A stretch of DNA of 64,000 nt from a virus. Position 1 is the first letter of the stretch. Every line of letters begins with the position of its first letter. Made by a program: the position numbers and the translations under genes. The notes beneath the pieces were generated by a model. It was not told the DNA's origin. It ran no database searches and worked only from the letters and a program-made list of their open reading frames with translations. The stretch is from the IMG/VR virus record IMGVR_UViG_3300022932_000015, positions 30,210 to 94,209 of that record. One strand, written 5' to 3'. This document shows positions 19,759 through 23,551 of this stretch, piece by piece.

Positions 19759-20244
19759 TTAACCAATCTTCTTTTTCTTTCTAATGTCAGAGATAACTTG
19801 TCTTCTTACATTGTATAATTCACATATAGACTTTATAGTCTTGTGTGGATTGTTTTCAATATCTTTCAAGACTTTTTCTATCAATTCAGTAGAATACTTT
19901 TTGTTTACTGGAATATTACCCTTCTTGAATTTGTATGATTCCATATTCATAAGTGGTAGTCTGCCTTTTTTGTAGGCATCTTTCATGTTATCAGAATGTG
20001 TACCTAAAAATAGATGTTTAGGATTAACACATAAAGGATTATCACATTTATGACAGACAAATACATTTGAATCATTTATTTCACCATACTTAAGTATATA
20101 TGATAATCTGTGACTATCAATTATTCTTTTCTGATATCTTATAACTCCATAATTACCTCTCATTCCTGCTTTCCATTCCCAACAATCTTCATCATTATTA
20201 GTTACTCTTACTTTACTCCAGAATCTTTCGATTATAGTACTCAT
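19759..20244 (-). CDS. HNH homing endonuclease
   Basis: CWEW, SHRLSY, VCHKCDNPLCVNPKHL..GTHSDNM; start reassigned to MSTIIERF just after the tmRNA 3' end. Confidence 0.85.
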   Translation of the reverse strand: MSTIIERFWSKVRVTNNDEDCWEWKAGMRGNYGVIRYQKRIIDSHRLSYILKYGEINDSNVFVCHKCDNPLCVNPKHLFLGTHSDNMKDAYKKGRLPLMNMESYKFKKGNIPVNKKYSTELIEKVLKDIENNPHKTIKSICELYNVRRQVISDIRKKKKIG

Positions 20245-20257
20245 TTGTTTTAATTTG

Positions 20258-20646
20258 TGGAGCTGGACAGGTACGATCTGTCGTGTTCCATAATTCATTA
20301 TTAATTTTCTACAAGTTTAGCATATCTTTTTCTCCTAATGCAGGATATTTGATTCTTAATCAAAAAAGCAACACATTGGCTAGTTATAGTCTTCCTATGT
20401 GTGAAGTGGTTGACTTTCCAATATTAGGCTGCTAACTCTAATTCTGCAATTGGGGCAGATGTCAATTTAATGACTTTTGCTGAAGCGCTTTTTACAACTG
20501 CAAGAACATCAGCGATGCCTCCTACTTCGTTGGTTATTACAACATTGTCCGTTAGAACTTGAAACCATAGATTAAAGTGATAGATAACATCTCACTACTT
20601 GCTTATCAATAAATTATTACAGAGTCTATAGCCAACTCTCAGCCCC
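20258..20646 (-). ncRNA. ssrA: transfer-messenger RNA
   Basis: 5' GGGGCTG pairs with 3' CAGCTCC-A including the G3:U alanine wobble; T-arm GACAG-ATCGTAC-CTGTC; internal ORF ending ...AELELAA-TAA (stop 20424-20426); 389 nt. Confidence 0.9.
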
Positions 20647-20755
20647 AATTCTTTATACTTTACTTTAATCCCTTTTTACAATTAAGATACTAAGGATTGT
20701 TTAAAGAATTTATTTTTTACTATGTTAGTATAGTTAATATTATGTGTATTAAAAT

Positions 20756-20818
20756 ATAAGTAACTTGACTATTAGAATTGTAGTTGTTGTAATTCGAGTT
20801 GTTGAACACTAAACTACT
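20756..20818 (-). repeat. DGR template repeat TR2
   Basis: 63 nt, non-coding, AAC/AAT-rich; ungapped match to 20904-20966 with 15 mismatches, all at TR adenines. Confidence 0.95.
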
Positions 20819-20831
20819 AGAAGTTATAATA

Positions 20832-21281
20832 TTAACGTTGAATGATTTTGTATAAATGAGCATAATTCTTACCTACAAAATCAGAGGTTTTCTGATCTTT
20901 GAAATAAGCAACCTGACCAATAGAACAGTAGCTGCTGTAATCCGAGCTGAGGAACACCAAACCACCTTTTTTATCATTCTCATGATAAGGATACCATTTC
21001 TGTTGGTCATGATCAGTCCAATCTAAGATCCAATCTTCATTAAAGAATTTTTGTACTTGTTTTAATTGAGCAACTGCTACATGAAATTCTATCTCTTCTG
21101 GTGTGAATAAATTAGAAAAGTGCTCTGATTTTACTTCATATTCTTTCAAAGCTCTACATATACTTGGATAATCAGCTCCTATTTTGAATAAATCTGCGGG
21201 AGCATTTACTACCTTTTCTAGTTCCATTATTGTTGCTTTTAGCTCATTGATTTTTTCCTGAGCTTTCTTTTTATCTGTCAT
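20832..21281 (-). CDS. DGR target protein 2 (149 aa)
   Basis: Contains VR2; ATG overlaps the RT TGA; paralogue of target 1. Confidence 0.9.
   Translation of the reverse strand: MTDKKKAQEKINELKATIMELEKVVNAPADLFKIGADYPSICRALKEYEVKSEHFSNLFTPEEIEFHVAVAQLKQVQKFFNEDWILDWTDHDQQKWYPYHENDKKGGLVFLSSDYSSYCSIGQVAYFKDQKTSDFVGKNYAHLYKIIQR
20904..20966 (-). repeat. DGR variable repeat VR2
   Basis: Encodes GGLVFLSSDYSSYCSIGQVAY; TR2 in the same frame reads SSLVFNNSNYNNYNSNSQVTY. Confidence 0.95.
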
Positions 21282-22225
21282 AAGTATTTATTTTTTAAGT
21301 TTATACTATTACAATGAGATAACCATCCATTGTAGCTTGCTATTGATTTTTTATTATTATTTTTCCTGATCATTCTTATAAATCTTAGTTTTATACTCTT
21401 TCTCAGTAAAATATGTGTATGATAAGATTTATATCCAAGGAAATCTATTCCTCTAGATTTTACAGGAAATATTTGATAATTTGATTTTATTTTAAGTTTC
21501 AAATTTACATTTAGATATTGCTCTATCAAATGTAATATTCTGTGTAATTCTTGTTTATTGCTTCCCAATATAACTAAATCATCACAATATCTAAAATAGT
21601 ATTTTACTTTTAAAGTTTCTTTAATCCAATGATCAAAATAGCTTAAATAAAAATTAGCAAAATATTGAGATAGATAATTTCCAATAGGTTGTCCTTTACA
21701 ACTATCTATTATATTACTCAATAAACTCAGTAGATTTTTATCTTTAAATTTCTTGAGTAATAATTCTTTTAAAATATCGTTATCAATGTTTGGGTAGAAC
21801 TTTTTGATATCTAATTTTAAGCAGTATTGAGTCTCCTCTTTGTTTTTTAATGCTTTATTTAGAGAATTTAGACCTTTGTGTATACCTCTATTCTTTATAC
21901 AGTTATAAGTATCTTTAGTAAATGTTGATACAAATATAGGTTCTAAAATATTCATTATAGCATGATGTACTATTCTATCTGGGTAATAGGGTAACTTATA
22001 TATTTCCCTTTCTTTTGGATCAAAAATTGTGAATATTTTGTATTCTGACGTGTTATAGTTATTGTTTAATAGTATTTGATTTAAATTTAATATATTATTA
22101 TCATAGTTCTTGTCAAATTCTATTACGTCTTTATTTTTAGATTTACCAATTCTAGCCTTTTTATCGGCTAGTATTAAATTATCTATATCACAAATTTTAT
22201 TATATAAGTTACCTATTCGTTTCAT
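21278..22225 (-). CDS. DGR reverse transcriptase
   Basis: DRIVHHA, KLDIKKFYPNI, GQPIGNYLSQ (DGR-type SQ motif), YCDD, GIDFLGY; 315 aa with no maturase or endonuclease domain. Confidence 0.95.
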   Translation of the reverse strand: MKRIGNLYNKICDIDNLILADKKARIGKSKNKDVIEFDKNYDNNILNLNQILLNNNYNTSEYKIFTIFDPKEREIYKLPYYPDRIVHHAIMNILEPIFVSTFTKDTYNCIKNRGIHKGLNSLNKALKNKEETQYCLKLDIKKFYPNIDNDILKELLLKKFKDKNLLSLLSNIIDSCKGQPIGNYLSQYFANFYLSYFDHWIKETLKVKYYFRYCDDLVILGSNKQELHRILHLIEQYLNVNLKLKIKSNYQIFPVKSRGIDFLGYKSYHTHILLRKSIKLRFIRMIRKNNNKKSIASYNGWLSHCNSINLKNKYL

Positions 22226-22323
22226 CTTATACTTCTTAAGTCTCTTTCAATAGTTTACTAAAGACTCTTTAAGTTTGTTATCTTTTACCCAGTGGTATGG
22301 TTAATACTAATTAGTCTAAAATA

Positions 22324-22382
22324 TAATAAGTAGAGTAGTTAGAATTGACATTATAGTTGTTCACGTTATTCAGTACCTAACT
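22324..22382 (-). repeat. DGR template repeat TR1
   Basis: 59 nt, non-coding; ungapped match to 22472-22530 with 15 mismatches, all at TR adenines. Confidence 0.95.
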
Positions 22383-22395
22383 AAAACATTTAGTA

Positions 22396-22749
22396 TTAAC
22401 CTAAATATGAATTGTATAATTTTATAAGCTCATTTGCCATCACTCTTGCTGTATCTTCTTTCTTATAATAGTAAGAAGCAGAGAAGTGAGAAGTGACACA
22501 ATAGCTGTACACGCTACCCAGCACCCAACCATCTTCTTTAGAAAATCTAAAATATGGTAGATACTTATATTCATTACCATTGTTAAAGTCTGGTTCCCAT
22601 ATTTTGTCATCATTATCTAGATAGTTTTTTGCTTTGATTATCGTCTCTAAACTGTAAGATATCCAATCTTTCTTCCTTCTAAATTGATGTTCTACATATC
22701 TTTGATGACCAACTTTAAATAATATTTTCTCAGCTTCTTCTAAACTCAT
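22396..22749 (-). CDS. DGR target protein 1 (117 aa)
   Basis: Contains VR1; WEPDF...YKYLPYF motif paralogous to WILDW...QKWYPYH in target 2. Confidence 0.9.
   Translation of the reverse strand: MSLEEAEKILFKVGHQRYVEHQFRRKKDWISYSLETIIKAKNYLDNDDKIWEPDFNNGNEYKYLPYFRFSKEDGWVLGSVYSYCVTSHFSASYYYKKEDTARVMANELIKLYNSYLG
22472..22530 (-). repeat. DGR variable repeat VR1
   Basis: Encodes GWVLGSVYSYCVTSHFSAS; TR1 in the same frame reads S*VLNNVNNYNVNSNYSTY. Confidence 0.95.
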
Positions 22750-22754
22750 AATTA

Positions 22755-23150
22755 TTATTTTTCAGATTTTTCCTCTTTACTTAATTCTTTGATTTGTTTA
22801 TCTAAGAATGATGAGACTAACTCACTTGTTTGAGAAGGTATTTTACATATGCTTGTATCCTTTGATATCCAATCAATAGTCTTGCCCCCAGCTATAATTA
22901 ATATTGCTTCATTTTTAGATGGTGTGAGAGTTATGCCTATTATTGCAATACCAATTAGAATAAATGCCCATATTATTTTCCATCTGTTCTTTCTAGTGTA
23001 TATCTCATTATCATCTCCCTCTATATGATTTATAAACTTTATAAAGTAGAATAGTACCATCATTGCTATCCCTATAGTTAATATAGCATTGAACATTCCA
23101 TTTAAAGAATCTAGCCTTGTTAGCCAATATAATTTCCAATATATATTCAT
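22755..23150 (-). CDS. membrane protein
   Basis: Two hydrophobic segments; YWLTRLD and PSK motifs. Confidence 0.65.
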   Translation of the reverse strand: MNIYWKLYWLTRLDSLNGMFNAILTIGIAMMVLFYFIKFINHIEGDDNEIYTRKNRWKIIWAFILIGIAIIGITLTPSKNEAILIIAGGKTIDWISKDTSICKIPSQTSELVSSFLDKQIKELSKEEKSEK

Positions 23151-23174
23151 ATTTTTATGTTTTAGTTGTTTTTA

Positions 23175-23363
23175 TTAATTTTCATTGTACATTGATATAT
23201 ACTCTATTATTAAGGCTATCATTATCAGTGGTAATCCTAATACGCATATTGTTAACATTAACATCACGGAGTAAAATACATTAAAGTCTTCTAGTATATC
23301 GAAGACAAATAGTCCTAGTATAAAGAAATTTAATGCAAAGTAAATTGTTATCATTATTTCCAT
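23175..23363 (-). CDS. small membrane protein
   Basis: Almost entirely hydrophobic, 62 aa. Confidence 0.5.
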   Translation of the reverse strand: MEIMITIYFALNFFILGLFVFDILEDFNVFYSVMLMLTICVLGLPLIMIALIIEYISMYNEN

Positions 23364-23480
23364 ATTTCATTTTTAAATTGTTATTAATGGTTATTATAAT
23401 AAACCCCTCTAGGAAACTGGAATAACCTAAAGGGTTTATTATACTGAAAGTAAGCTTAGATAAGCTTTACTTCTTTGTTG

Positions 23481-23551
23481 ATGCTCTACTAGGACTCGAA
23501 CCTAGATTAATTCCCGAGAGGAATTCTCCTATCCAGTTAGAGGATAGAGCA
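23481..23551 (-). tRNA. atypical tRNA, tentatively Glu(CTC)
   Basis: Acceptor TGCTCTA/TAGAGCA, D-loop AACTGGAT, anticodon arm AATTC-CTCTCGG-GAATT, T-arm CTAGG-TTCGAGT-CCTAG; 71 nt, no encoded CCA. Confidence 0.7.

Follow-up and report, generated by a model that had tools for sequence, protein, structure and literature searches.

One reverse transcriptase flanked by two target-template-spacer modules: a twin-cassette diversity-generating retroelement in a crAss-like phage

Can a single reverse transcriptase (RT) of the type found in diversity-generating retroelements (DGRs) diversify two genes, each from a template of its own? The question is raised by a minus-strand locus at positions 20647-22749 of the 64,000-nucleotide (nt) window studied here, the whole stretch of DNA that was analysed, which is part of the 94,209-nt phage genome IMGVR_UViG_3300022932_000015; coordinates are window positions unless another locus is named. 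Read along the minus strand, the locus consists of a first target gene (target1), a template repeat (TR1), a spacer RNA, the RT gene, a second target gene (target2), a second template repeat (TR2) and a further spacer RNA. Our analysis makes it very probable that this is one RT working with two complete target-TR-spacer modules, in which each TR diversifies its own adjacent gene.

What does the anatomy of the locus tell us? Target1 (22396-22749), a small phage protein of 117 amino acids without a Pfam model (P0001), contains the variable region VR1 (22472-22531), which encodes its residues 74-93; it is followed by TR1 (22324-22383) and by spacer RNA 1 (22226-22323; 98 nt), which leads into the RT gene (21278-22225; 315 amino acids). 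The ATG of target2 (20832-21281; 149 amino acids; P0002), a paralogue of target1, overlaps the stop codon of the RT (ATGA). Here VR2 (20902-20966) encodes residues 106-126, and TR2 (20754-20818) and spacer RNA 2 (20647-20753) come after the gene. The VRs lie close to the 3' ends of their target genes, each non-coding TR starts 12-13 nt past its target gene, and the spacer RNAs are roughly 100 nt long. In an ungapped comparison, TR1 (22382-22324) and VR1 (22530-22472) are identical at 44 of 59 positions; all 37 non-adenine positions match, and the 15 mismatches all fall on the 22 adenines of TR1. TR2 (20818-20756) and VR2 (20966-20904) are identical at 48 of 63 positions, with 39 of 39 non-adenine positions matching and the 15 mismatches all on the 24 adenines of TR2. 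Neither pair contains an indel, and under random placement the chance of all mismatches falling on adenine is 4.3e-9 for the first pair and 1.1e-8 for the second. Both TRs are runs of AAY codons (Y, pyrimidine) in the frame of their own VR, such that in both cassettes the VR lies in a coding target with in-frame template AAY codons.

A scan for A-only repeats across 20300-23200, made independently of these comparisons, returned the same two pairs alone, each with an offset of 148 nt between VR and TR. At non-adenine positions the TRs match the VR of the other cassette poorly (TR1 against VR2, 49%; TR2 against VR1, 54%), so each explains its own VR only. Each TR finds just a single perfect non-adenine partner when the 94,209-nt genome is taken as a whole, the runners-up reaching 25 of 37 and 24 of 39 positions. 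A preliminary description of the locus had given the order and coordinates of these parts on the minus strand, the 30 mismatches (15 in 59 and 15 in 63 nt, free of indels, all on TR adenines) and the restriction of each TR to its own VR; open reading frames (ORFs) and ungapped comparison bear out all of this, to the exact count. Its figure of 4^22 x 4^24 combinations stands as nominal nucleotide arithmetic, but the templates permit about 2e12 and 3e13 variants at the peptide level. The equal 148-nt offset carries no weight because it is not conserved in relatives, where the offsets are 150/168, 170/156 and 169. Changes at template adenines are dominated by A-to-G in both VRs (9 of 15 in VR1, 11 of 15 in VR2), with seven template adenines kept in VR1 and nine in VR2. 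The third codon of TR1 (22377-22375, minus strand) is an in-frame TAG opposite the conserved Trp75 codon (TGG) of target1; faithful copying of its adenine in homing would truncate target1, and Trp75 is present in both natural variants.

Are both cassettes being diversified in nature? When looked up exactly, the RT protein was found, identical, on two contigs, of 94,215 and 6,123 nt, and the shorter one encodes variants of both targets, P0003 of target1 and P0004 of target2. P0003 differs from target1 at eight residues (78, 81, 82, 83, 84, 86, 88 and 89) and P0004 from target2 at six (111, 112, 114, 116, 119 and 121), the other 109 and 143 residues being identical between the contigs. All 14 differences fall at TR codons of the form AAY or TAY, the six of target2 all at AAY codons; every variant residue is reachable by adenine-only changes, and VR codons without a template adenine are identical on both contigs. 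As both targets vary at template-adenine codons, the protein sequences of the second contig tell us that both cassettes diversify in nature. Could recombination, or point mutation under diversifying selection, have produced these differences in place of retrohoming? The comparison with the second contig at the protein level only gives such a reading some room. However, it would have to place 14 of 14 differences on adenine-holding template codons and at the same time leave the adenine-free VR codons, the rest of both targets and the whole RT untouched, and we consider it extremely unlikely. A search of viral and metagenome contigs with N at the template adenines returned no other copies of either cassette, in a collection from which near-identical records may be missing.

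Is the twin layout peculiar to this phage? We scanned eighty IMG/VR loci with RTs 60-72% identical for A-only repeat pairs. Two of them, L005 and L011, have the same layout, with one TR upstream of the RT, at a distance of about 105 nt, and a further TR on the downstream side, after a second small target, and with all TR/VR mismatches on adenine. L084 has the downstream cassette and an upstream spacer, the end of the contig cutting the locus; the contigs of L006 and L071 end just past the start of the second target gene, and L014 has the upstream cassette only. In L009 the RT is followed by an ORF of 53 amino acids (L009:1028-1189) with 42% identity (E 9e-7) to the N-terminus of the downstream target of L011, and no TR, VR or spacer was found after it; in this lineage the downstream cassette has decayed. 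Natural variants confined to the VR occur in the upstream target of L005 and in the downstream targets of L011 and L084. The pair L006 and L011 shows no difference along 4,241 nt and therefore yields no variation data. A clean natural case of DGR activity, which makes the RT family one that is at work in nature, comes from the sister clade described below, in which one TR serves two VRs: across 6,945 nt, the prophage-like, single-TR loci L007 and L008 are set apart by 11 substitutions alone, at positions 2275-2305, all 11 of which lie in one VR at TR adenines, the second VR being identical in both.

A quick maximum-likelihood tree of the RTs (IQ-TREE) groups the twin-layout loci and L006, L009, L014 and L071 with Suoliviridae RTs in a 10-member clade with 100% support, and the other 62 RTs form its sister clade. 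There, nearly every locus in which repeats were found uses a single TR for two or three VRs, which lie in paralogous small targets arranged in tandem; in L069 and L077 there are three such targets with a VR each, again on one TR. With 94% support, the downstream target of the window clusters with those of L011 and L084, which indicates that the twin layout is older than the split between phages that now share only about 66-70% RT identity. Among the relatives, the neighbours of the locus are a DnaB-type helicase, an SNF2 helicase, metallophosphatases and an RNA ligase.

By which route, then, did the second cassette arise? It might descend from two complete DGRs in tandem, the second of which lost its RT and left an orphan template that is served in trans, an account of its origin and not of its present function. 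Both modules are complete save for the RT, and TR1 and TR2 are old paralogues, about 46-49% alike at non-adenine positions, as such a history would have it. Yet there is no remnant of an RT after spacer 2, be it in the window, L005, L011 or L084, and in the sister clade one TR already serves two paralogous targets in tandem. The latter offers a simpler path, on which one target moved along with a copy of the TR-spacer, and we regard the descent from two full DGRs as rather unlikely compared with a duplication of the target-TR-spacer module.

Does each template have an RNA scaffold of its own? The regions 3' of TR1 and TR2 are homologous, spacer 2 being 73% identical to spacer 1. We built a covariance model, R1, solely from the aligned TR-RT spacers of 59 single-TR relatives; on this alignment RNAalifold predicts 13 pairs, and compensatory changes occur in 10 of these. 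In the 64-kb window R1 has two matches below E 0.01, one directly 3' of TR1 (22335-22225; 40.6 bits, E 2e-7) and one directly 3' of TR2 (20730-20658; 29.3 bits, E 1e-4), the next best having E 0.05 or weaker, and it likewise gives two matches each in L005, L011 and L084. In an alignment fitted to R1, and hence favourable to this figure, the eight spacers of the twin loci form 91% standard pairs, as against 26-59% for slid partners, with compensatory changes at 9 of the 13 pairs.

The spacers are further joined to their target genes by a long-range stem. In cassette 1 its 5' arm (22401-22390) spans the stop codon of target1 and is a 12-base-pair (bp) complement of 22310-22299 at the start of spacer 1; in cassette 2 the arm 20836-20826 spans the stop codon of target2 and is an 11-bp complement of 20743-20733 in spacer 2. 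The closing stems of the two cassettes show a compensatory difference, and RNAalifold on 67 full cassettes predicts the same long-range stem with an 8-bp consensus, strong covariation and many pair types. It is followed by a 4-bp hairpin (22286-22297 in spacer 1; the corresponding hairpin of spacer 2 lies at 20718-20730), an A-run and a further helix. Through this pairing of the stop-codon region with the spacer's start, the TR would be held as a loop closed by a stem of 11-12 bp.

This arrangement has a close counterpart in the DGR of Bordetella phage BPP-1, which is composed of the VR of mtd, avd, TR, the spacer Sp and brt and contains an RNA element termed cPRT Stop (bioRxiv 10.1101/2023.10.23.563531; PMC6182149). 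The cPRT Stop comprises a duplex between upstream sequence and Sp, a short stem-loop, and adenosines in A-minor contacts; it is needed for cis-primed reverse transcription and marks the end of cDNA synthesis (bioRxiv 10.1101/2023.10.23.563531). An upstream:spacer duplex, a stem-loop and adenosines are present in both cassettes of the window, in the same succession as in BPP-1, and by analogy may have the same function. The two systems differ in that the upstream arm of the duplex lies in avd in BPP-1, but in the end of the target gene here. Spacer 1 also matches the Rfam family RT-17 (RF03020; Weinberg et al. 2017, PMC5737381), at 35.6 bits and thus below the gathering score of 40.4. Among relatives, L010 exceeds this score with 44.9 bits and both spacers of L005 and L084 reach 34-39 bits. 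By these scores, the spacers of the window are divergent relatives of RT-17 that are detected by R1.

Is one of the two cassettes nevertheless a relic, most likely the downstream one, which merely keeps the look of a TR/VR pair and is no longer used? Relics do exist, as in the remnant of L009 and the missing downstream cassette of L014, and in the Zeta crAss-like phage Lera extra TR/VR pairs with non-A substitutions have been judged decayed (PMC12386605); spacer 2 of the window moreover scores under spacer 1. However, neither TR/VR pair has a single non-A mismatch. The helices of spacer 2 are kept through compensatory changes, the downstream targets of L011 and L084 vary as well, and both targets of the window differ between two natural contigs at template-adenine codons only. 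The last point largely refutes a relic, which we consider very unlikely.

The RT itself has the hallmarks of its kind. It matches RVT_1 (5.9e-18) and phrog_1423 (2e-117), and has the motifs IGNYLSQ at residue 181 (the DGR-type GxxxSQ) and YCDD at residue 213 (YxDD); its place in the RT clade described above agrees with this assignment. It is the only RT in the whole genome. The host is a complete 94-kb crAss-like phage, whose terminase, portal and major head protein match crAss-type PHROGs, the major head protein being ~36% identical to its Suoliviridae counterparts. The closest phage RTs in GenBank, with 55-59% identity, are annotated as DGR RTs of Suoliviridae crAss-like phages.

How would such a system operate? 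We propose that transcription of either cassette yields a DGR RNA complete in itself, whose scaffold would bind the single RT. By analogy with BPP-1, cDNA synthesis would prime itself at the 3' end of the TR, copy template adenines unfaithfully, and halt at the closing stem; each cDNA would then replace only the VR that it matches at non-adenine positions. The same scaffold type on both TRs would let a single RT serve both, and the differences between the TRs at non-adenine positions would have each rewrite its own gene only. The parts may be co-transcribed as one operon. A scan of 20200-23400 found no terminators, and promoter-like sites in this range were not clearly over a shuffled background. 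The early suggestion of one RT diversifying two genes from two templates is supported by the single RT, the two scaffolds and the variants of both targets. The adenine-restricted variation in both VRs that it implied is seen at the protein level, between two contigs with identical RT, and two TRs in relatives are found in L005, L011 and L084, which share the layout within one RT clade of 100% support.

Several observations weigh against this proposal. The second contig is compared at the protein level alone, and hence through the sequences of targets and RT, and the two contigs may come from different samples; more generally, the support consists of DNA, RNA-model and protein sequence evidence. 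No GC-rich initiation of mutagenic homing (IMH) element is visible at the 3' ends of the VRs, where the identical sequence after the last A mismatch extends over about 7 nt in both cassettes. Spacer 2 has no match to RT-17 at E <= 1, and its R1 score is below that of spacer 1 (29 vs 41 bits). Lastly, Avd (PF05635), which the BPP-1 enzyme needs, has no match at E <= 1 across the 94-kb genome. CrAss-like DGRs are as a rule reported without Avd (PMC12386605). On the mechanism proposed here, the RT of the window would act independently of this protein.

How does the locus compare with known DGRs? Beyond the position of the duplex arm, it departs from BPP-1 in having two TR-spacer modules, one of them downstream of the RT, in showing neither an Avd match nor a GC-rich IMH, and in its targets, which are proteins of 117-149 amino acids and not a C-type-lectin tail fibre. 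Multiple templates as such are not without precedent: a 2024 survey counts 53 cases (PMC11661182), and others are known from Stenotrophomonas SKA14 (PMC6642488) and from the Zeta crAss-like phages Lera/ct1yV3, where the extra pairs look decayed (PMC12386605). In all of them, as in the window, multiple TRs and multiple targets go with one RT locus, and the preliminary description, which had treated the arrangement as a departure from the usual reuse of a single TR, overstated its novelty: multi-template DGRs are already in surveys, and the two-module layout is a well-documented variant. These reports, however, catalogue architectures and give neither RNA scaffolds nor evidence that the systems are active. 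In the window, by contrast, both pairs vary in nature, a separate scaffold belongs to each of them, and a clade has conserved the layout; the extra pairs of Lera carry non-A substitutions, whereas both pairs here are clean. New here are the clean, conserved two-module layout flanking the RT, the duplication of the entire priming and termination RNA and not of the TR alone, and the natural evidence that both arms work. Other close systems are the DGRs of the sister clade (L007-L081) and of Suoliviridae (cr52_1, cr56_1, cr115_1), with RTs 55-66% identical and spacers of the same RNA family. The former have in common with the window the family of small targets, but reuse a single TR for two VRs; the latter diversify one Mtd-like tail protein of roughly 413 amino acids from one TR.

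The surroundings of the locus place it outside the structural arm of the genome, on a minus-strand arm with a DNA polymerase, an HNH endonuclease and a tRNA. Directly after spacer 2 lies a gene resembling transfer-messenger RNA (tmRNA; 20255-20646, minus strand), which covers model positions 1-374 of Rfam RF00023 at 28.7 bits (E 6.5e-9), below the gathering score of 47, and is without an ARAGORN call; about 44 nt at its 3' end are shared with the beginning of the HNH endonuclease ORF (19759-20298). Directly upstream of target1, a protein of 131 amino acids (22755-23150, minus strand) has two predicted hydrophobic helices and belongs to phrog_3878, of unknown function; in Suoliviridae relatives, holin and lysis genes adjoin the DGR RT. 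A tRNA-Glu (CTC) at 23480-23551 (minus strand) was found by both ARAGORN and Rfam.

What, finally, is being diversified? Target1 and target2 belong to one family of phage proteins of 120-165 amino acids, for 95 members of which Pfam gave nothing significant, and a profile search of the PDB with the family gave nothing below E 0.1. AlphaFold (AF2) models, with predicted local distance difference test (pLDDT) scores of 88 for target1 and 93 for target2, share a predicted topology of a long helix, a beta-hairpin, a loop and two C-terminal helices; in both, the VR is predicted to form the second hairpin strand and the loop that follows. With these models Foldseek found no match in the PDB at E <= 0.001, VIA-align reached Z scores of 4.6 and 4.0 at best, with no C-type lectin entry among the matches listed, and BFVD and ESM Atlas returned uncharacterised phage proteins only. 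No signal peptides are present in the target proteins, and their genes lie in the replication/early arm and not among the virion genes. Phage DGRs are held to vary mainly tail proteins, and in the prevailing view their variable regions sit in C-type lectin folds (PMC8144416). This target family, small, widespread and outside the structural modules, has no obvious fit to either expectation. The targets may be a divergent variant of the C-type lectin. Another proposal, which we put forward as speculative and on balance improbable, is that they have a different scaffold and do their work within the infected cell, where they might be diversified binders that target, for instance, host defence or host factors, in a two-channel system.

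For the biology of DGRs, the locus provides natural evidence that a single RT can serve two template RNAs, with two genes diversifying independently. This bears on how specificity is coded in these elements, by an RNA scaffold for the enzyme and by non-adenine TR sequence for the target, and it bears on the current multiplexing of engineered DGRs. For the phages that carry it, should the proposed intracellular role of the targets be true, a clade of crAss-like phages would diversify intracellular binders through two channels, in place of the receptor-binding variation of their tails.

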